Shown in pieces: positions 53,675 through 63,952 of a DNA stretch of 64,000 nt (position 1 is the stretch's first letter; every line of letters begins with the position of its first letter). Location: positions 1,393,942 through 1,457,941 of the forward strand of contig OY970323.1 in the NCBI GenBank assembly GCA_963716985.1, in the 5' to 3' direction. Below the pieces are notes generated by a model that was given only the letters and a program-made list of their open reading frames with translations, searched no databases and was not told where the DNA came from. Both the position numbers and the translations under genes were made by a program. This stretch comes from an uncultured bacterium. Its GTDB lineage: Bacteria > Chlamydiota > Chlamydiia > Chlamydiales > SM23-39.

Positions 53675-55105
53675 TCATTCTAATAGCTGTCCGAAATCAA
53701 TCACTTTATCAAAATACCTTTTATCCAAAACACTCTCCTCCACCCCATTCACATGTATAAGCACAGGTCTGATAGAGCAGTTTCTGGGGATTTTCAAATT
53801 CTTTATTTTCTTTTCCATTTCCTCAATGATTTTATTGCCGACCGGATTCTTAGAGAACTTAATCTCACATACATATAGATTAAGGAAACGAGTTTGGATC
53901 ATATAGTCAATTTGGCATCCGGCTTGCTTGGTCGTATGATTCTGAAAAAATGGACCTTCCATTACTATCTCTTCTGGAGAGATCCCTAACATCTTCCAGA
54001 GAGTTTTTCTATTATGGACAACAAGATTCTCAAATTGTAATCCCATGATACCTTCCCACCCAGGAAGTTGAGTTATTAAAGTGGAAAAACTTTCTTTCTC
54101 GATTTTAGAATGATTAGGAGCTATATATTTCAAATAAAAACGCAAATAATTATCACTTAATCGATAACGGCTCAATTTTCCTTCTTTTCCACTTTTCAGA
54201 TCCCATGTAAAGTCCCTTTTTACAAAGCCTGCCTTTACCAATTCATCTAAATGTTTGCTGAATATCCCCCCCAAACTTTTCCCTAATTCATCGCAAATTT
54301 GAACAAGCTCTTTTGAACCATTGGCAAGACAGAGGACAATTTCTTTATGACTAGCTTTACTACGAGAAAAAAGATCAGAGAATATCTCATCGAACTCTCT
54401 CACAAGCAATCCTCCTTTAGTAAAACAAAGATCTTGGATATTTCGTTCAGCGGGAAGATTTGGTTTGATTTGTTCCAAGTAAAGCGGGATACCTCCTATT
54501 ACAGATAAAAGTTTGAATTTTTCATAAGGAGTAATACGTTTTTCTTTTGGATGCCAGAAAGCATTGCAGACCCCTAATGGAAGTTCTTCAAGCACAAGAT
54601 CAAGGGTAATTCTTCCCAGAAATCCTGTATTGCTTAGGATATTCTTTTCAATCCATGAAGATACTGATCCACAAAGCGCAATAATTAGGTACGGATTTTT
54701 GCTAAAATACATATCCCAAGCAGTTTTCAAGTGTCCTAAAAAATGAGGATCTTTTCCCCCCATCCATGAAATTTCATCGAATACGATAAGGATTCGACCT
54801 TTTTTAGTTTCCTTGGAGAGATACCAAAAGAGATCGCTCCAATCATCTGGCTTAACGCCACGAATACCAGCTTTTTCAAGCTGACGTGCAAAATCATTAC
54901 GCTGAGTTTGAGCTGTTGTCTTGCGAACCGGAGGATTTCCAGAAAAAAAGTAGCTTTTTATCTCTTTCCCAAATTCTACAAGAAGTCTGCTTTTTCCAAT
55001 ACGTCTTCTACCCCTGACAACAATAAGGCTGGCGCTTTTCTTGTCTAAAAGCCCCTCAAGCCTTTTCATTTCAGCTTCACGTCCTATAAACTGAGACGGT
55101 TTCAT
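53675..55105 (-). CDS. AAA ATPase of the Arch_ATPase / DUF234 type
   Basis: FIGREAEMKRLEGLL...LIVVRGRRRIGKSRLL (Walker A), ILIVFDEISWM (Walker B), and a C-terminal DUF234-like region (IDYMIQTRFLNLYVCEIKFSKNPV). Confidence 0.75.
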   Translation of the reverse strand: MKPSQFIGREAEMKRLEGLLDKKSASLIVVRGRRRIGKSRLLVEFGKEIKSYFFSGNPPVRKTTAQTQRNDFARQLEKAGIRGVKPDDWSDLFWYLSKETKKGRILIVFDEISWMGGKDPHFLGHLKTAWDMYFSKNPYLIIALCGSVSSWIEKNILSNTGFLGRITLDLVLEELPLGVCNAFWHPKEKRITPYEKFKLLSVIGGIPLYLEQIKPNLPAERNIQDLCFTKGGLLVREFDEIFSDLFSRSKASHKEIVLCLANGSKELVQICDELGKSLGGIFSKHLDELVKAGFVKRDFTWDLKSGKEGKLSRYRLSDNYLRFYLKYIAPNHSKIEKESFSTLITQLPGWEGIMGLQFENLVVHNRKTLWKMLGISPEEIVMEGPFFQNHTTKQAGCQIDYMIQTRFLNLYVCEIKFSKNPVGNKIIEEMEKKIKNLKIPRNCSIRPVLIHVNGVEESVLDKRYFDKVIDFGQLLE

Positions 55106-55497: not shown

Positions 55498-55537
55498 TTC
55501 ATGTTAACTTCACACGTTTATCTATCCCAAACCATCG

Positions 55538-55721
55538 TACGCGTTCACGGGGGGGGGGGGGGGGGGTGAGGGGTCTATGGGAAATAATGAAATCGGAGGA
55601 CGCACGGCTGCGAAACAACGAGCTAAACAACAAAAAACTACCGGTTTTTCCCCGCTTTTTAGTGAACCAGATGCCTTTAATCTCACATTTCTCATAGACC
55701 CCCCATCCCCGTGAACGCGTA
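55538..55721. repeat. 184-bp inverted-repeat element containing a G18 homopolymer (copies B and C of the GTACGCGTTCACGGGG family)
   Basis: The left arm is GTACGCGTTCACGG, then a G run (55549-55566, 18 G), then TGAGGGGTCTATGGGAAA. The right arm 55692-55721, reverse-complemented, reads GTACGCGTTCACGGGGATGGGGGGTCTATG. Confidence 0.75.
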
Positions 55722-55772
55722 CCATGTTTTTACAATTCTTTTCTATCAAATGACGCTATGAAACCTGTCCAT

Positions 55773-57827
55773 TCATGGACGGGATGCAATGGCGTCATTT
55801 GACAAGGTAAAGAAATGCTCAAAAGGCATCTGTGCTATAAGTTCTCTTTCCGTCCTTGGAAAGGCTTGGAAAAAGAATGCGCTTGCTACGAATATAAATT
55901 TTTTCCGCGCCCGAGTGAGCGCCACATTAAATCGTCGATACTCCTTCAAAAAAGAACTATGGATCGTATCTTTATCAGAAACTGTAGCAGAGAAAATGAC
56001 AATATCGAATTCCAATCCTTGCATTCGCTCAACCGTATCAACCCTGGGCAGCGTTAATGAAAAAGGCAAAGCCTCTTTCAAAGCAGAGAGAATCGTATTA
56101 TTTTGCAATCGATGAGGAGAAATAATGCCAATTTGCTCATAGGAAACGGAGTAATCGTCAATCAGACGTTTCACGGCTTTCGCTATCCACTCAGCTTCCT
56201 CCGGAGAAGACTGCTGCGATCCCAAATGATCTAGCTGAACGACGACCATGGATTTAGATGGATCTAGATAGTCATCTAAAAGATCTCCAAATAACGGGTG
56301 GTGAGGTAGCTCAAATTTCTGATCTTTTTCAGCCACAACAGATTGTAGTTCGCCGTTGTACCACTGCTCACTTGCAAACTTACAAATATCCGCATTCATG
56401 CGATAGGTTTCATTCAAGCGCAAGTGGTTTTGAGCGCCGTATCGGGAAATCAATTCCTGTAATATGGAGCGAGGAGGAAGGAAGGTGTTCTCATAGTTTC
56501 CCTTCAACACGGGAGACAATTGCTGCGTATCTCCATAAAACAACGCTTTTCCCTTTCCAAAAATGAAACTTTGCAATGCGTAGGGGGTGAGGACTTGTGA
56601 CGATTCATCAAAAACAACCCAATCAAATAGTTGTGGAAAATTTTTATCCTCCAATAATTGATAAACCCCATACCCTGTAGCCCCAAGGATAAGACAAGAG
56701 CGGTCGTGAAGCGCTTCAGAACCATACATCTGGCCAATCCCCAAACTCGAGAATTGAGTCTCATCGAAGCGTCCATATTTCCATAAGGAAACACCGGAAA
56801 CGTTTGCCTCCGGAAGTGTTTTTGCGACTTTTCTGAGAATTTGATCGATCGCATGATGCGTCTGCGCCGTGACCAAAATCTTGATCGGGCGATTGAAAAA
56901 TTTTGCATGCGCTACTAGCGCAATAAGCGTCCATACGAGTAAGTGGGTCTTCCCGGTTCCCGGCGGTCCTTCAATGAATCCAATTTTTTCCCGAAAGGGC
57001 AGCGCTAAGGCTTGTTTTTGAAGGTGGTTCAATCCTGCAGCTAGAGCTCTTGATTGATACCACTGTTCTATCCAATGGGTTGCGTCGGATGCAAAACTTT
57101 TTGCATGCCCCAGAAGCATTTGAATCACTTCAGGGCAAAATTTTGGATCTTTTAATAGGTTTAAAACCCTGGCTATTTTCGGCGCATTCCAATCTGTTGC
57201 ATCCTCATCTAAGGCGTATAATTGATTTCTGCTAAAGCTCACCTTTTGAGATACAGGGCGCACAGAAAGAAGCCCCTGTTCCGGCGAATAGGTGTCGAGT
57301 ACTACAGAAAACCCGTCTTGAATTTGATCACTTCCAACCGGCGATAATTTTAAAAAATCTCCGACTCTAAATTTGGAAACTGTCGACTTTGCACCTATAG
57401 AAAATGAGAGGCCTTCTTTTTGCGCCGCGCCGCCAAGGAAACTGATAGGACCTATTGCTCGGAACTGTTTTACACGGTCCGGCAAGGGGTTTTTTTGAAA
57501 TGCGCAAATCTCGAAACCGCGGCACTCCGTTTCTCGGTGGTGCATCGCAAGATAAGCATGAATCAAAGGAACCGAGTGTGCTTTGTTGCCTTCAAACGAC
57601 ACCACACGCTGACTTTTCACGTTAGACAGACACCAGTTCCAAATGTGTCTACAAAGATCAAATGAAGCATCCGAAAAGGACTCCTTATGATACAAGCTGA
57701 GGGGTTGGATCGGGGAGGGGGAAAGACCCAAGCACGCCCCAACTTGCATCGCTGTGATACGTCCGTCAATGGGCCAAAGAAAATGGGTTTCCAACACAGT
57801 CTGGATAGCGGTCCAGGAAACATGCAT
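55773..57827 (-). CDS. C-terminal half of an IS-split giant gene: Upf1/Dna2-like SF1 helicase (AAA_11/AAA_12 type)
   Basis: GPPGTGKTH (Walker A), VVFDESSQV (motif II), YGDTQQLSPV, LNETYRMNADI, VERMQGLEFDIVIFS, and FNVALTRARKKF. The frame is continuous with 59520..62801 once the IS is removed. Confidence 0.85.
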   Translation of the reverse strand: MHVSWTAIQTVLETHFLWPIDGRITAMQVGACLGLSPSPIQPLSLYHKESFSDASFDLCRHIWNWCLSNVKSQRVVSFEGNKAHSVPLIHAYLAMHHRETECRGFEICAFQKNPLPDRVKQFRAIGPISFLGGAAQKEGLSFSIGAKSTVSKFRVGDFLKLSPVGSDQIQDGFSVVLDTYSPEQGLLSVRPVSQKVSFSRNQLYALDEDATDWNAPKIARVLNLLKDPKFCPEVIQMLLGHAKSFASDATHWIEQWYQSRALAAGLNHLQKQALALPFREKIGFIEGPPGTGKTHLLVWTLIALVAHAKFFNRPIKILVTAQTHHAIDQILRKVAKTLPEANVSGVSLWKYGRFDETQFSSLGIGQMYGSEALHDRSCLILGATGYGVYQLLEDKNFPQLFDWVVFDESSQVLTPYALQSFIFGKGKALFYGDTQQLSPVLKGNYENTFLPPRSILQELISRYGAQNHLRLNETYRMNADICKFASEQWYNGELQSVVAEKDQKFELPHHPLFGDLLDDYLDPSKSMVVVQLDHLGSQQSSPEEAEWIAKAVKRLIDDYSVSYEQIGIISPHRLQNNTILSALKEALPFSLTLPRVDTVERMQGLEFDIVIFSATVSDKDTIHSSFLKEYRRFNVALTRARKKFIFVASAFFFQAFPRTERELIAQMPFEHFFTLSNDAIASRP

Positions 57828-57842
57828 AGCCCATAATGATTT

Positions 57843-59519
57843 GGGTGCACCTGTTTTAGAACGACTCCATATTTCATAGATAAAAATAAGAAATTCAAAA
57901 AAATTTTAGTGTAATAAAAATTAGTTTTTTCGTAGCCTATCTGCATTAATCGAAAAATTAGGCAAAAAATGTCTACTCTTTTCCGAACCTCAGCACAGGT
58001 TTTTTTAGCATTGACTCAACACATGGGTTCACGAGAAACTATGAGCATGAGACATAGTTCAATAGAAAATATCATATCAACCGACATTCGAGAGCTTTCA
58101 CGCAACATTTTCGAAGAGCATATAGACTTACGTAATCTCGGAGAGGTAGGAGACAGTATCGTGGGTTCTGATGGGGTAGTGCGTACCCACAAAAGAATTC
58201 TCGAGAGAGTACTTGTGTGTCTGTTTGGCAATGTGACCATTAGAAGACTGGGATATGGAGCACGTGGACATAACAGTTTATTTCCTAAGGATGCCATCCT
58301 TAATCTCCCTATCGAGTCTTATTCTCATGGGATTAGAAAGCTTGTAGCTCAAGAAGCCGCGAGGGGTCCTTTTAATGAGGTCATGGAGGTAGTAAAACGG
58401 ATAACAGGTGTTGCTCTGCCCAAAAAAACGATAGAGCTGTTGACTCGTAAAGCAGCTGTGGATTTTGACACATTTTATGAGCAAAAACTAACCATGAAGC
58501 AACCTTCAGTCAAACAACTTCCCCTGCTTATTTTAACGACAGATGGCAAGGGTATTGTAATGCGCCATGAAGATTTGCGAGAAGCGACTCGAAAAAAAGC
58601 GGAACAAGGCAAGCACAAGTTGAATAAAAGAATGTCAAAGGGAGAAAAGGCCAACGCGAAAAGAATGGCAACAGTTGCATCTGTGTATAGCATAGATAGA
58701 TTTCTGCGTACTGCAGAACAAATCGTTATGGAGATGAAAGCTTCAGAAGTACCAATTGTTCGTCCTCGTCCTTCAGAGAAAAGAGTTTGGGCAAGTATTG
58801 AGCACACATCTGACAAAGTCACAGCCGATATCTTTGAAGAAGCATTGCATAGGGATCCTAAACAAGAGCAAGAATGGGTTTGTTTATTGGATGGAGATCC
58901 AAGGCAACTAAAAAGAATACGATCAACCGCGAAGAAAAAGGGAATAAAAATTACGATTGTAATGGATGTGATTCATGTCATTGAATATCTATGGAAAGCA
59001 GCACGTGTATTTCATGAGGAAACTAGCCCGGAAGTCGAGACATGGGTCTCGGAGCGTTTGCTGGCTGTTTTGCGGGGAAATCCTGGGCAAGTAGCTGCCG
59101 GAATACGGAGATCAGCAACATTGCGAAAAATTCCCGCGGCACAGAGAGCTCCGATAGAGAAATGTGCTGGGTACTTACTTAAAAACAAACCTTATTTACA
59201 GTATCACCGCTATCTTCAAAAAGGGTTTCCGATAGCTACAGGAATTATAGAAGGAGCTTGTCGCCATTTAATCAAAGATAGAATGGATATAACGGGAGCT
59301 CGTTGGAGTTTGCAAGGAGCGGAGGCAATAGTGAGATTGCGTTCGCTCAGATCTAGTGGAGATTTTGAGGACTACTGGAGATTTCATGAGGAACAAGAAT
59401 TTGTGCGTAATCATAAGTCACTCTATGCAGATCCGAGAATTCTTGATAAAGTACAATAAATTACTGGTGAAAATTTCTAGCTCTCTATGAAAAGTCGTCG
59501 TTCTAAAACAGGTGCACCC
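57843..59519 (+). mobile_element. ISKra4-like insertion sequence (1677 bp) with 23-bp perfect terminal inverted repeats and 9-bp target duplication
   Basis: IR GGGTGCACCTGTTTTAGAACGAC at 57843-57865 has its reverse complement at 59497-59519. The direct repeat TAATGATTT lies at 57834-57842 and 59520-59528. Confidence 0.9.
57969..59459 (+). CDS. ISKra4-family-like transposase
   Basis: A 496-aa ORF fills the IS. The C-terminal block GIIEGACRHLIKDRMDITGARWSLQGAEAIVRLRSLRSSGDFEDYW is characteristic of ISKra4-type transposases. The family assignment is from memory. Confidence 0.7.
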   Translation: MSTLFRTSAQVFLALTQHMGSRETMSMRHSSIENIISTDIRELSRNIFEEHIDLRNLGEVGDSIVGSDGVVRTHKRILERVLVCLFGNVTIRRLGYGARGHNSLFPKDAILNLPIESYSHGIRKLVAQEAARGPFNEVMEVVKRITGVALPKKTIELLTRKAAVDFDTFYEQKLTMKQPSVKQLPLLILTTDGKGIVMRHEDLREATRKKAEQGKHKLNKRMSKGEKANAKRMATVASVYSIDRFLRTAEQIVMEMKASEVPIVRPRPSEKRVWASIEHTSDKVTADIFEEALHRDPKQEQEWVCLLDGDPRQLKRIRSTAKKKGIKITIVMDVIHVIEYLWKAARVFHEETSPEVETWVSERLLAVLRGNPGQVAAGIRRSATLRKIPAAQRAPIEKCAGYLLKNKPYLQYHRYLQKGFPIATGIIEGACRHLIKDRMDITGARWSLQGAEAIVRLRSLRSSGDFEDYWRFHEEQEFVRNHKSLYADPRILDKVQ

Positions 59520-62500
59520 TAATGATTTCAATACCGTCGACTGAAAAGTTCTTTGAAAAAGATGCCAGTCTATTGATTCATAAACGAGAAAGTGTGGATT
59601 TTTTCCCCGGTTAACAGATTGAATCCACTCTTTTCGCAATTGGCTTGCCATTTCCCTTTGAAATGTCTCCTCATTTGAAAAATCTCGTGAACGAATACAA
59701 ACATCATTGATCGACACCCCATTTTCCCAGCACTGCCACCGGACGCTCTCGCGATCGTAGTGGATGAAGTACCACTGTTTGGAATTTTTTGGGAAATCAT
59801 TGGATTCGATATTCCGTGAAACAATCATCCGATTGTTCGGAGTTGTTGCGTTATTAAAAAGAGTCTCTTGGTAGCAGTAAGAAAAATAACAACACGATGT
59901 ACAGGAAAATTCCATAGAATAGTCTTGAACGGCTGAACTCCTCCCGGAATCTGTTTTCCACTGAGCCAATAACCGGGGCATCCAAGCTCTATAAGGAGCC
60001 AATATAAACGAGGCTTTTTCAAATAGCTTTTCGCGGTCCATAGGACGGTAAACAAGCCCACCCAGAGCGGAGACCCTTACCGGAAGCAAAAACGTTTCTC
60101 CATTCAAAAGGCGATCTAGCAGATAGGCGTAAAAGGCGATCCTCCATTTTTGTGCATAACTGATTGATTGAGAAAATTTGATATCCCAAACCTCTAAGCA
60201 AATATGAGATCCTTGATGTTGAATATAGATTAAATCCGGAGTTCCGCTTATCGAACCTTCGACCTTAAGTTTTGCCTGCGCCAGAAAAAGAGGCTTTTTG
60301 TCCAATACAACTGTTCGAATGGCCTCTTGCCATGTCAATTCTGCTGTTTCAAAACAGACGTTCGCTTGATTCTGCAAGGCCTCTATCACTTCCTTTTTGA
60401 AAGCGATCCCTTGTTGCCGTCGAGATTGGATTTCTTGATCAATCCCGGAGAAGCGAGGGTGAGGCTCTATTTGGTAGTCAAGTTGCTGCAATCGAGCCCA
60501 TCTTGGACACAGATTCTGAGTCACATAACCTTGAACCTGCGTCGCAGTCAATGAGAGAGGCAAAATCTGTCCATCCGAAGAAATTTCGGGAAAAGAAAGT
60601 ATGCCCCATGCATTTTTTTCATTTTCTAGAGACCAGGGTTCCCCTTTCAGATCGATGCGATGGGTCGCTATTTTTTTTTCCTCATCCACAAGGGGGGGAC
60701 AGGGAAGCCACTTAGATTCTGAAACGTACCTCTGAAAGTGTTTTAAAACTCTAGGGTCGTGGAGACGAGAGCCGATCTCTTTCCGTTGATGCTCTTCCGG
60801 CAGCCAATACAGCCAACTATTCCAAGAAAATCCCCCTTTCAGCAAAGGCAAATGAGAGGATATCCACTCCTGAAATTGCTCAACCGTATGAGGAATTTTT
60901 AGGAATGCAAAGGGAATCCATTCGTTACATTCAAGACCCATCTCATCGAAATTCATTGATAATCCCTCTATTTTAGAGGCAAACTGCTTTTCGATAAGGT
61001 GGTAGAGGATATAATTTGCGACTGATCCTAAAAATGTTTCATAGCGATACGTTCCATTTCCTAGTCGATGAACCCGAATACCATTTGGCTCTTCAAGAGA
61101 TCTAGCTATTTTCTCTCTCTCCTTCTCCAGGAGCTGCCCGGTGCGACTTAATAGACCTCGGGGTGTAAATTTGTCTAAAAGAATCGCACCCATTTTTTGC
61201 GCCACCTCAAAAGGAGTTGAAGGTCCAAATCCCATCCAAACCAATTCCTTGCTTGCGGGCTCATTCGACTCTTTAACCAAAACCTCAAGAGCGGCCCTCT
61301 TCTCTTCAATGCGAAGAACTCTTAACACCTTTCCCGTTAATCGAATGAGATCGCCTACCTTTAATTGCCTCACCACCGACAGGGGTAAAACAGCAATTTT
61401 TTCATATTCCAAAATCACATCATACTCTTCGTCAGTCGGTGGAAAATTGCTCCATATTTGCTTCCTTTTCAATGACGAAAAATAACGCCATCCTCCACCG
61501 CATATCCCGGGCTGCTTTGCCGGTTTGAGCCAATTGTTGGCAAGCATATGATGAAAAATGCAGGACAAATCCTGCGATTTTTCTTTGAAAAGCAGGTTTA
61601 ACGAATCGTTTGATAATGCTTTTTTCGCGTAGAGGCAAGATAAAATTTGCTGAAATAGCACGCTGTAATTCTCTGAGCTGCGGCATTTTTCTACCCGATG
61701 TTCTTTTGCGAGTTCAAAAAAAGCTAAAAAGCGAACGAGTTGCATCCCTGCGCTTTGTCCATAGCAAATTCCCCAGAAGTTCATGTATTGCTGGCGACGG
61801 TTGCCGCGCCCAATCCTTTGTAAAAACCCCATTGTAGAGGGGGGCGGTCCCATCAGCACTACGCCATCTACATCCCCGATATCAATCCCTAACTCTAGGG
61901 TGCTTGTTGCAATGCAAACTCCCATTTTTCCATCTCTAAACGAAGCCTCGATGAACTTTCTCTCTTGAGTAGAAAAATTAGAGTAATGTAAAAAAACTTT
62001 CTGAGAAAAAACACCTTCTTGATTCAGGATATTGTATAATTGCTCGCATTTTTTTCGACTATTCGCAAACACTAAAAGTTTTTTACAACCCGATCGGCGA
62101 TATAAGTCATCGAAAAGCAGCGTCAGCTCTCGCTCTTCATCTTCAATGTGCACCCAGCACGGTTGCAGCGTCCTGGCAACAGACTGCTTATAGTAAAAGG
62201 AGGTCTTGCTAAGATTAAAAAACCGCATGATATCTTCTGCATTGTCAATCGTAGCAGACAATGCAACGGTTTGTAGCGGTCCGATAGACTGCATTGCAAG
62301 CCGATGATGCAGATACGATAACTGACGCCCTCGGTCATCATGAAGAAACACGTGCACTTCATCGATAATCATCATATGCACATGCTTGAGAAAATATTTA
62401 TTATCCTGATTCGGGCTCCCCAGCATCACATCTAATGATTCGGGAGTCATGATGAGAAGATGAGGCTTTGCATCCAGAAGGTGTTTTCCATCGCCCGTTC

Positions 62501-62801
62501 GAATGCCTGATTTCAAGCCTAGCTTCTTATAGATAGGCTTAATCCTTCGATTCATATCCAAAGCTAAAGCGCGGGTGGGAACGATGTAGATGATGGTAAA
62601 ATGATCAGGATAGATCATCAGCTTTTCAGTTGCCGGAGCAAGGACAGCCTCTGTTTTCCCGGCTCCCGTGCCTGCCTGCAGTATGACATCCTCTCCATTA
62701 AGAATAGGTTGAATCAACTGTTTTTGCGCAGCTGTGAGAGTGGAAAAACCGGAAAAAAAAGCGCGATACGTGTTAGGAAGCAGTTCTAATGGAGAAGTCA
62801 C
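59418..62801 (-). CDS. N-terminal part of an IS-split giant gene: Lhr-like DEAD/DEAH SF2 helicase fused to a Cas4/AddB-type Fe-S PD-(D/E)XK nuclease (native sequence 59520..62801; last 33 codons are IS-derived)
   Basis: AGTGAGKT (motif I), DEVH (II), SAT (III), QRIGRGNRR (VI). The nuclease module has LCPRW...TPDLIY...LEVWDIKFS...QKWRIAFYAYLL...CTSCCYFSYC (CX2CX5C). The GTG start overlaps the upstream stop (GTGA). Confidence 0.85.
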   Translation of the reverse strand: MTSPLELLPNTYRAFFSGFSTLTAAQKQLIQPILNGEDVILQAGTGAGKTEAVLAPATEKLMIYPDHFTIIYIVPTRALALDMNRRIKPIYKKLGLKSGIRTGDGKHLLDAKPHLLIMTPESLDVMLGSPNQDNKYFLKHVHMMIIDEVHVFLHDDRGRQLSYLHHRLAMQSIGPLQTVALSATIDNAEDIMRFFNLSKTSFYYKQSVARTLQPCWVHIEDEERELTLLFDDLYRRSGCKKLLVFANSRKKCEQLYNILNQEGVFSQKVFLHYSNFSTQERKFIEASFRDGKMGVCIATSTLELGIDIGDVDGVVLMGPPPSTMGFLQRIGRGNRRQQYMNFWGICYGQSAGMQLVRFLAFFELAKEHRVEKCRSSENYSVLFQQILSCLYAKKALSNDSLNLLFKEKSQDLSCIFHHMLANNWLKPAKQPGICGGGWRYFSSLKRKQIWSNFPPTDEEYDVILEYEKIAVLPLSVVRQLKVGDLIRLTGKVLRVLRIEEKRAALEVLVKESNEPASKELVWMGFGPSTPFEVAQKMGAILLDKFTPRGLLSRTGQLLEKEREKIARSLEEPNGIRVHRLGNGTYRYETFLGSVANYILYHLIEKQFASKIEGLSMNFDEMGLECNEWIPFAFLKIPHTVEQFQEWISSHLPLLKGGFSWNSWLYWLPEEHQRKEIGSRLHDPRVLKHFQRYVSESKWLPCPPLVDEEKKIATHRIDLKGEPWSLENEKNAWGILSFPEISSDGQILPLSLTATQVQGYVTQNLCPRWARLQQLDYQIEPHPRFSGIDQEIQSRRQQGIAFKKEVIEALQNQANVCFETAELTWQEAIRTVVLDKKPLFLAQAKLKVEGSISGTPDLIYIQHQGSHICLEVWDIKFSQSISYAQKWRIAFYAYLLDRLLNGETFLLPVRVSALGGLVYRPMDREKLFEKASFILAPYRAWMPRLLAQWKTDSGRSSAVQDYSMEFSCTSCCYFSYCYQETLFNNATTPNNRMIVSRNIESNDFPKNSKQWYFIHYDRESVRWQCWENGVSINDVCIRSRDFSNEETFQREMASQLRKEWIQSVNRGKNPHFLVYESIDWHLFQRTFQSTVLKSLGCTCFRTTTFHRELEIFTSNLLYFIKNSRICIE

Positions 62802-63952
62802 ACTGAAGTATCCAACAGAACATGTTGGGTTTCCCTATCGAGTTTATTCACTAATGCCTTTAACTTAAATCGAGTCTCTTGAGCTTCAAGTTTACCTAGC
62901 AAAGATTGCAAGCTCGCCTTTACTTGTAAAGGAAGGTCGATTTGATAAGCTTGAGAATAAAGTTGCATGAGGCGGTCGAGCAAAGATTCCCATCCATGAG
63001 AAGAAAAGTCTTGAAGGCGCAGAATATGTAAATCCCGCCAAGCCTCTGCATAATTCTTGGGAAAATTGTCATCGTACGTCTCATGATTAGCTTTATCAAA
63101 AAAATCGTCCGTAAACGCAAATACGGGAAATACAGAACTTTTGGTTTGAAAAAACTGATCTAAAAGATGATAACTTTTTACTCGATGGCCCAATCGTCCC
63201 TGTGCAATCGATTCCGCTTCATCAAAAAACAGCAGCAATCCCTTGTACCCCATTTCTTTTAGGACCCTTCCTAAGGATTGAACCATTTGAAAATAGGAGT
63301 CATTCCCACGGCAAATCAGAGATTGCTCCCGATAGCCTTCGACTTCCCGATATTTGCAGACATTCCTGAGATGCGCGACAGGTATGTCATATCCCATCAA
63401 CGCTTTGTCGAGCCAATACCCATACTCCTTTGGCCGATAAGCTTGATGCTTCTTCAATGAACTCTCCTTTGGAGTGAGCCGCTTGTTCTTACAAAGCATT
63501 GCAGTGAGTGTTATCCTAAAGCGATGAGGCATAGTGCTTAAAAGCTCCGGGCAATCCTTGTGAGCGCAATTTCTCCACGCATTCGTAAATTTTTGACCAT
63601 CCGGCAAAGAAAGTCTTTCCATGATTGACCGATAAACAATAGAAAATCGATGGAAAGGAACTTCTCTTAAATCTAATTGAACGACACTCGTAGCATAACC
63701 TTGAGAAAGGGCTAATTGATTCAAATAAGTTAACGTGTGTGATTTTCCCTGCCCATAAGATCCGCAAACACACAAGTGATCCGACTTTCCTTTTTCTAGT
63801 GCCTTTAGACCTTTAGAAAAAACATTTTCGATTCGATCCTTTTCCACGGTCAGGTAATTCACTGCTACCGGATCAAATAATCCGTCCCGTAGTCGTTCAA
63901 CAGCGCGCCTTAGAGAAAATCGATCCACGTTAAGCATCCCAAACCGGTTCAA
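62798..63952 (-). CDS. BrxD-like P-loop ATPase (DUF2791 / BREX ATP-binding domain type)
   Basis: RRAVERLRDGLFDPVAVNYLTVEKDRIE...HLCVCGSYGQGKSHTL (Walker A) and GLLLFFDEAES (Walker B). The layout matches the DUF2791 family. The start is TTG 63952 or ATG 63937. Confidence 0.7.
   Translation of the reverse strand: MNRFGMLNVDRFSLRRAVERLRDGLFDPVAVNYLTVEKDRIENVFSKGLKALEKGKSDHLCVCGSYGQGKSHTLTYLNQLALSQGYATSVVQLDLREVPFHRFSIVYRSIMERLSLPDGQKFTNAWRNCAHKDCPELLSTMPHRFRITLTAMLCKNKRLTPKESSLKKHQAYRPKEYGYWLDKALMGYDIPVAHLRNVCKYREVEGYREQSLICRGNDSYFQMVQSLGRVLKEMGYKGLLLFFDEAESIAQGRLGHRVKSYHLLDQFFQTKSSVFPVFAFTDDFFDKANHETYDDNFPKNYAEAWRDLHILRLQDFSSHGWESLLDRLMQLYSQAYQIDLPLQVKASLQSLLGKLEAQETRFKLKALVNKLDRETQHVLLDTSV

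Follow-up and report, generated by a model that had tools for sequence, protein, structure and literature searches.

A nuclease domain of the iron-staple class within a giant, insertion-split helicase gene of an uncultured chlamydial bacterium

The window analyzed here is a 64,000-nucleotide stretch of contig OY970323.1 (positions 1,393,942 to 1,457,941 of the forward strand, GenBank assembly GCA_963716985.1) from an uncultured bacterium of the Chlamydiales lineage SM23-39; all positions below count from its first letter. Its minus strand carries a giant gene, split by an insertion sequence (IS), whose upstream part is an open reading frame (ORF) of 1127 amino acids (aa) with a GTG start at 59418..62801. 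Residues 748-984 of this ORF (59850..60560, minus strand) form a PD-(D/E)xK nuclease domain that is a divergent, ordinary member of a class already known, the iron-staple RecB-family nucleases of AddB, Cas4, DNA2, EXO5, and Bad. Residue conservation, profile matches of relatives, an AlphaFold2 model, Foldseek comparisons, and BLASTP alignments all point to this assignment. We consider it probable that the domain is the head of a Bad/DNA2-like module placed behind a BrxHI/SngC-type helicase, with a predicted iron-sulfur (Fe-S) cluster, a likely nuclease activity, and a possible role in defense.

Results

Sequence signature of the nuclease domain

The truncated ORF consists of 1091 native codons, running from 62801 down to 59528, and a 36-codon tail produced by read-through into the target duplication and the IS up to a stop codon. 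The initial annotation had read a four-Cys nuclease signature in the span 59862-60539, which corresponds to residues ~755-980 of this minus-strand ORF, and each motif string and residue number it quoted is present in the translation exactly as given. From the N terminus these are CPRW (residues 765-768; 60498-60509), TPDLIY (residues 854-859; 60225-60242), LEVWDIKFS (residues 869-877; 60171-60197), QKWRIAFYAYLL (residues 884-895; 60117-60152), and CTSCCYFSYC (residues 967-976; 59874-59903), the last of which holds CX2CX5C by way of C967, C970, and C976. All of these lie on the minus strand, where the key residues map to codons at 60507-60509 (C765), 60234-60236 (D856), 60183-60185 (D873), 60177-60179 (K875), 60141-60143 (R887, the position of the family's Gln), and 60129-60131 (Y891), with the three triad Cys falling within 59874-59903.

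Taken by itself, CX2CX5C carries no significance, as its count matches the shuffled expectation (3 matches in the six-frame translation against ~3.5 expected in shuffles). The composite signature, in which C.R is followed by Asp with two hydrophobic residues, [DE].K, Tyr, and CX2CX5C, matches once, at the nuclease domain, and not at all in 100 shuffles. A fifth Cys, C971 (codon 59889-59891), lies within the last motif and is shared with an identical intact allele, P0152, described below. Close relatives read CTSCRYFSYC, with Arg at position 971, and across the family this residue varies.

Conservation of the catalytic and cysteine positions

The family is rare; a word-index search returned 10 matches, mostly fragments, and 144 were found when 1.84 billion representatives were searched exhaustively with HMMER. 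Conservation was counted in an alignment of 82 extracted homologous domains, with identity down to about 20%. Each Cys of the C-terminal triad (C967, C970, and C976) is found in all 82 domains, and C765 is kept in 74 of the 75 that have a residue at that position. D856 is kept in 80 domains, D873 in 78 (with Glu in 3 more), K875 and Y891 in 77 each, and R767, within the CPRW motif, in 67. Position 887 is Gln in 69 domains and Arg in the window sequence, and this motif-IV Gln is replaced by Arg or Lys throughout the clade to which the window sequence belongs.

These counts, together with the profiles, the fold, and the alignment with the Bad family given below, uphold the central claim of the initial annotation, that one upstream Cys and CX2CX5C surround a D...(D/E)xK core as in AddB, Cas4, and Dna2. 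Some of its details need revision. The catalytic core does contain D856 and the D873-x-K875 motif, but E870, which had been read as part of it, lies outside the motif and is Glu in only 32 of the 82 domains. Q884 had been taken as the Gln of the QxxxY helix, of which Y891 is present; most relatives have His at 884, and the canonical Gln position is 887. The statement that all catalytic positions are intact was thus slightly overstated, since D856, D873, K875, and Y891 are all in place, the motif-IV Gln is R887, and E870 is irrelevant.

The ratio of nonsynonymous to synonymous substitution rates (dN/dS) of the nuclease domain against four orthologues is 0.11-0.24, similar to that of the helicase core, which indicates that the domain is under purifying selection and functional in intact genes. 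One homologue, the 425-aa fragment P0005, keeps CX2CX5C but carries D856->H, D873->A, and K875->T, making it a nuclease-dead version of the domain.

Profile matches and predicted fold

Among 33 diverse family members, 30 match the Pfam family Cas_Cas4 and 28 match PDDEXK_1. Two relatives linked to the window domain by HMMER score above curated cut-offs, P0091 for PDDEXK_1 (32.1 against 22) and P0085 for Cas_Cas4 (26.5 against 22.7), and relatives also match several PADLOC Cas4 models in alignments that reach the C-terminal Cys triad. The window sequence itself stays below the Cas_Cas4 cut-off (scores are given in the Discussion).

An AlphaFold2 model of the nuclease domain, built with the family alignment, has a mean predicted local distance difference test score (pLDDT) of 93.6 and a predicted template modeling score of 0.90. 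In this model D856 starts a beta-strand, D873 and K875 end the next strand, and R887 and Y891 lie in the helix that follows; C765 falls between two helices at the N terminus, and the C-terminal helices contain the Cys triad. The best Foldseek match in the PDB is the type I-C Cas4 8d3l (E 2.4e-6; template modeling scores, 0.55/0.59), over nearly the full length of both. Other significant PDB matches are MGME1, the Cas4-Cas1 complex 7mi4, ACE1, SSO0001 (4ic1), EXO5, Dna2, AddB, and RecB, all of them nucleases of this class. The confident model and its best matches to Cas4, MGME1, EXO5, Dna2, and AddB agree with the restriction-endonuclease-like fold that the initial reading implied.

A Bad/DNA2-like module behind the nuclease

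In silico removal of the IS and one copy of its target duplication joins 59418..62801 to 55773..57827 in frame and yields a 1,780-aa protein. Residues ~750-1780 of this protein comprise the nuclease, an RNase-H-like-fold insert, a beta-barrel, a stalk, and a superfamily 1B (SF1B) helicase. The N-terminal half of the RNase-H-like-fold module comes after the Cys cluster (59528..59849, minus strand, residues 985-1091) and ends where the IS cuts it. The C-terminal part of the giant gene (55773..57841, minus strand, residues 1092-1780) supplies the rest of that module, a helical linker, the beta-barrel, the stalk, and the SF1B (Upf1/DNA2/Bad-like) helicase, the last with AAA_11/AAA_12 profile matches at ~55881-57032. 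AlphaFold2 modeled residues 985-1385, which hold the RNase-H-like-fold module, linker, barrel, and stalk, with a pLDDT of 81, and the best PDB matches of the linker region in Foldseek are Dna2 (5ean, E 2e-4), Ighmbp2 (E 1e-3), and Upf1.

A catalytic role for the RNase-H-like region (residues 985-1180) was considered and rejected: its fold matches are weak (RuvC, IS621, and RNase H, E 0.03-0.1), no acidic residue in it is invariant, and one clade lacks half of the module. The giants of that clade are ~1,640 aa long (L007, L008, L009, L011, and P0006), and the ~100 residues they are missing are the N-terminal half of the same module that is hit by the IS in the window.

Many distant matches are proteins of ~1,250 aa with an N-terminal iron-staple nuclease and a C-terminal SF1 helicase. 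In one of them, the Bad-family protein P0085 (1242 aa), the motif-III Asp is residue 150 and the Walker lysine is residue 813, an arrangement essentially like that of Bad. When residues 740-1780 were compared with P0085 by BLASTP, the nucleases aligned with an E value of 4e-7, pairing D873 with D150 and C967/C970/C976 with C239/C242/C248, and the helicases aligned with an E value of 2e-39. Bad itself, from Geobacillus stearothermophilus, is a 1245-aa bacterial DNA2-like helicase-nuclease that contains Fe-S at about 3 Fe per protein, loses its nuclease activity in a D150A mutant, and acts as a 5'->3' SF1B helicase and as an endonuclease on single-stranded DNA (ssDNA) (PMC7430649).

Some Bad-like relatives look eukaryotic. 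P0110, P0115, P0132, and P0149 have Asn/Ser/Thr-rich, low-complexity N termini of a Dictyostelium-like kind, followed by an iron-staple nuclease and an SF1 helicase.

The N-terminal helicase and its operon

In front of the nuclease lies a BrxHI/SngC-type (Lhr-like) superfamily 2 (SF2) helicase module (60921..62750, minus strand, residues 18-627) with the Walker A motif AGTGAGKT and a DEVH box. Its DEAD and Helicase_C core occupies residues 23-335 (PF00270, 1.4e-33; PF00271, 5.6e-17). Residues 18-627 match the PADLOC BrxHI model (2.5e-92) nearly end to end, at model positions 21-628 of 698, and the helicase also matches Shango SngC (2.4e-73) and the ligase-associated DEXH family TIGR04121 (8.7e-56).

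Immediately upstream, a 384-aa BrxD-like (ORC/Cdc6-type AAA+) ATPase paralogue is encoded at 62798..63952 on the minus strand (BrxD, 5e-27; PF10923, 2.8e-25), and its stop codon overlaps the GTG start of the giant gene by 4 nucleotides, which suggests that the two genes are translationally coupled. A scan of the representative genomes of 185,579 species with clade-specific peptide patterns yielded 11 related loci, 8 of which have the same four-gene operon, in the order of an uncharacterized ~290-aa protein, BrxD (PF10923, 1.2e-57), the BrxD-like paralogue, and, last, a giant of 1,640-1,796 aa. The operon carriers are mostly Chlamydiota metagenome-assembled genomes (MAGs) and also Acidobacteria, and the other three loci include Legionellales and Verrucomicrobiae MAGs. 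The closest relatives are found in Chlamydiota MAGs, and giants of 1,700-2,200 aa that are more remote but built in the same way occur in metagenomes. The 5' end of the operon lies beyond the window edge, and its first gene is known from the related loci only. The product of that gene (positions 4414-5370 in L006, for example, among loci L001-L011) has 70% mean column identity among 8 orthologues.

The insertion sequence that splits the gene

The element that interrupts the giant gene is a 1678-bp IS of the ISKra4 family (57842..59519, plus strand). Its transposase ORF at 57969-59459 encodes 496 aa and matches NF033572 with 326 bits, against a cut-off of 205. The element ends in perfect 23-bp inverted repeats, GGGTGCACCTGTTTTAGAACGAC, at 57843-57865 and 59497-59519, and is flanked by an 8-bp target-site duplication, TAATGATT, with its left copy at 57834..57841 and its right copy at 59520-59527. 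The cut falls at codon 1091, inside the RNase-H-like module.

Two fragments result. The 1127-aa product retains an intact SF2 helicase and nuclease and ends in the 36 residues derived from the target duplication and the IS, and a separate 684-aa ORF in frame, starting at an ATG at 57827, carries the barrel, the stalk, and the SF1B helicase. This ATG stands three codons (two intact ones and the split one) past the insertion point. This genome could at best produce one fragment with the BrxHI part and the nuclease and another with the second helicase. The Bad-like layout, with nuclease and SF1B helicase in one chain, holds for the reconstructed protein and for the intact allele and is broken up here by the IS.

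That intact allele, P0152 (1417 aa, locus L014, from an assembly of the public run ERR11523654), is identical to the reconstructed protein over residues 371-1780. The IS site is empty in the DNA of both L013 and L014, and the IS-bearing allele is found again in a sibling run, ERR11523656 (L012). When the flanks of the IS allele were compared with L014, there were no mismatches across the aligned parts (99.7-99.95% identity, with one gap each); L013, a contig from the European Nucleotide Archive that is 97% identical, has no IS. Because an uninterrupted allele with matching flanks exists and the site is empty in L013 and L014, the insertion is very recent or polymorphic.

Neighboring features

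A miniature inverted-repeat transposable element (MITE)-like element of ~200 bp lies at 55529-55730, 43 bp downstream of the stop codon of the giant gene. It has imperfect ~45-nucleotide terminal inverted repeats (GTACGCGTTCACGGGG... and ...CCCCGTGAACGCGTAC) and a run of ~18 G inside, and a half-copy of its terminus is found at 1112-1138. Beyond the giant gene and this element, an orphan ATPase of 476 aa (53675..55105, minus strand; PF01637 ATPase_2, 1.9e-10, and AAA_16) may be another defense-type NTPase. Farther along are housekeeping genes, namely MarC, a MiaB-like radical SAM gene, glgB, and ligA.

Discussion

The position of the conserved residues suggests how the nuclease could be built. 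D856, D873, and K875, with Y891, would form a metal-dependent PD-(D/E)xK active site, and C765 near the N terminus of the domain, with C967, C970, and C976 at its C terminus, appears positioned to bind a single Fe-S cluster. This cluster, for which [4Fe-4S] is the likeliest type, would hold both ends of the domain together like a staple. We infer both Fe-S binding by the four Cys and nuclease activity from this arrangement. For the intact protein, BrxD-type AAA+ ATPases might place the helicase on DNA that is foreign or broken, or license its action there. The SF1B motor, predicted to run 5'->3' as Bad does, would be joined by the SF2 motor in front, a BrxHI/Lhr-type enzyme that would act on the opposite strand. 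The 3'->5' polarity predicted for the SF2 motor is that of Lhr. Together, the two motors would unwind the DNA and pass the separated strands to the Fe-S nuclease, which would degrade them; as in DNA2 and Bad, the SF1B motor located behind the nuclease would be its source of ssDNA. Such a bipolar machine would resemble RecBCD or AddAB and serve defense, the motor polarities, the BrxD loader role, and the defense role all being predictions.

A defense role is suggested by the similarity to BrxHI, SngC, and BrxD, by the patchy distribution of the family, and by the dispensability of the gene. Carried to its full extent, this suggestion leads to a proposal that is possible and that we offer only tentatively: the giant would be a single-chain, dual-polarity helicase-nuclease, an analogue of RecBCD or AddAB loaded by BrxD, that together with the ~290-aa protein makes up an anti-phage or anti-plasmid system that has no name as yet and occurs mainly in environmental Chlamydiota.

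Several observations weigh against these readings. The window domain falls below every curated threshold (Cas_Cas4, 11.7 bits against 22.7; TIGR00372, 12.9 against 65), and when the whole ORF and the domain were scanned against Pfam and NCBIfam, the nuclease drew only sub-threshold Cas4 matches. PDB chains searched by sequence and by profile, with window queries and two distant family members, gave nothing relevant, so that membership in the class rests on transitive homology and the predicted fold. In this clade R887 takes the place of the motif-IV glutamine, and P0005, to judge by its substitutions, is a sign that the domain is able to persist without catalysis; it also suggests that the function of the Fe-S module can be structural alone. 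The giant gene is interrupted in this genome. Its operon sits amid housekeeping genes (ligA and glgB) outside any obvious defense island, and the ~290-aa first protein has no match in Pfam, PADLOC, NCBIfam, or a PDB profile search. Lastly, sequence by itself does not tell Fe-S from Zn or [2Fe-2S].

This last point leaves some room, which we judge to be small, for four Cys that bind Zn2+ or [2Fe-2S] instead of [4Fe-4S] and act as a purely structural staple, as the signature has no power to discriminate among these. The Cas4 protein Pcal_0546 of Pyrobaculum carries [2Fe-2S] and counts in favor of such a staple. The authors of the Bad study could not exclude another cluster type either, but the same C...CX2CX5C layout binds [4Fe-4S] in AddB, DNA2, and probably Bad (PMC7430649), and the Foldseek neighbors of the window domain are Fe-S nucleases. 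A nuclease domain that is catalytically silent and serves only to thread DNA or to regulate would fit the replacement of the motif-IV Gln by Arg or Lys in the whole clade, and P0005, which has lost the D/D/K triad yet keeps its Cys, would be a precedent. We regard such a silent domain as very unlikely, given that the window domain and every intact close orthologue have D856, D873, K875, and Y891, and given the dN/dS values of 0.11-0.24.

Whether the gene is a dead remnant in this genome is a different matter, and one on which we come down only a little on the side of survival. A pseudogene could retain the complete signature simply because the IS arrived too recently for decay: the gene is split inside a folded module at codon 1091, the transposase is oriented against the giant gene, the downstream fragment is without an evident promoter, and since the flanks of the IS allele (ERR11523656) are identical to those of the uninterrupted allele of the sibling run (ERR11523654), selection has had no time to act. 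Against this, both fragments are open and keep all helicase and nuclease motifs, an in-frame ATG lies near the insertion point, and split helicase-nucleases such as AddA and AddB can work as separate chains; a dead remnant would in any case bear on current activity and not on the identity of the domain. The main rival to the defense role is a function in DNA repair or recombination, in which the giant would be an AddAB/RecBCD-like end-resection machine of Chlamydiota with no anti-phage purpose. We find this somewhat unlikely. AddB, DNA2, and Bad are repair-type enzymes (PMC7430649), the neighbors in the window are housekeeping genes that include ligA, and Lhr-family helicases, to which the TIGR04121 similarity (8.7e-56) belongs, act in repair. 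Yet the N-terminal half finds its best full-length matches in the defense helicases BrxHI and SngC, genes for BrxD-type ATPases always precede the giant gene, the distribution is very patchy (11 loci among 185,579 species, although the scan used clade-specific peptide patterns), and IS-disrupted and intact alleles coexist, which implies that the gene is dispensable.

If the proposed defense machine is real, the fusion would show the task of the BrxD-BrxHI dyad in type 2 BREX and Shango, namely, to bring a helicase onto foreign DNA so that a nuclease effector can act. The mechanism of BrxHI and BrxD in type 2 BREX and of SngB and SngC in Shango is not known, and the fusion offers a hint of the "guilt by fusion" kind that the dyad may work at a step before DNA is degraded. 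Through this family, Bad-like enzymes, of which the biological role is not known, also reach into an apparent defense setting and into Chlamydiota, where defense systems have been little studied. Intact and IS-split alleles with matching flanks provide a natural loss-of-function comparison.

Comparison with known systems

Cas4 (PF01930/DUF83) is the best structural match of the window domain and shares its four-Cys arrangement and PD-(D/E)xK core, whereas Cas4 is a stand-alone protein of ~200 aa and the window domain is internal, has no cas1 or cas2 neighbors, and scores below the Pfam and TIGR cut-offs. The top Foldseek matches and the weak Cas_Cas4 Pfam match are what a genuine CRISPR-associated adaptation nuclease would give, but a domain inside a 1,780-aa helicase, in a family whose related loci carry BrxD genes instead, leaves that identity with a negligible likelihood, and the context refutes it, with no cas genes and no CRISPR or other repeat array in the 64-kb window. 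In AddB and eukaryotic DNA2, too, an iron-staple nuclease is joined to SF1 helicase folds, and the barrel and stalk of the linker are closest to those of Dna2 5ean. The helicase-like domain of AddB is inactive and its partner is AddA, and DNA2 has no second motor, unlike the window protein, which combines two apparently active motors and a nuclease in one chain.

Bad is the closest characterized relative. Like residues ~750-1780 of the giant, it begins with an iron-staple nuclease of the layout C...D...DxK...Y...CX2CX5C, followed by a long linker and a C-terminal SF1B helicase. The window protein differs from it in a front extension of ~740 aa that is the extra BrxHI-type SF2 helicase, in being encoded after BrxD ATPase genes, in the Arg that replaces Gln in motif IV, and in a nuclease that is only ~24% identical, and its gene is split by the IS.

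In type 2 BREX (Pgl), BrxD and BrxHI are described as a tightly linked dyad of unknown role (PMC12839542). This dyad and the SngB-SngC pair of Shango share with the window locus a near end-to-end helicase match and BrxD/SngB-like ATPase genes immediately upstream; neither BrxHI nor SngC carries a nuclease-helicase effector, whereas the window helicase is fused to one and is accompanied by two BrxD paralogues. The locus is not type 2 BREX, as pglZ, pglX, brxC/pglY, and pglW were not found among the window ORFs scanned (the 5' end of the operon lies beyond the window edge) and the related loci show the four-gene operon only, nor is it canonical Shango, which is defined with TerB, as the ~290-aa first gene of the related operons has no TerB/SngA match. 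Cas4-like (pfam12705) nucleases have been found combined with SF1 or SF2 helicases in predicted defense loci (Hudaiberdiev et al. 2017, PMC5704561), and the UvrD-Cas4-like and YprA-linked nucleases described there resemble the window protein in pairing a Cas4-like nuclease with an SF1 or SF2 helicase in a predicted defense context. They differ from it in their helicase families (UvrD of SF1A, and YprA) and in their neighborhoods (type III restriction-modification and Dcm-Vsr). The fusion of a BrxHI-type helicase to a Bad-like nuclease-helicase, accompanied by twin BrxD proteins, appears to be undescribed in the literature and to be a new combination, built around a nuclease domain of a type already known.

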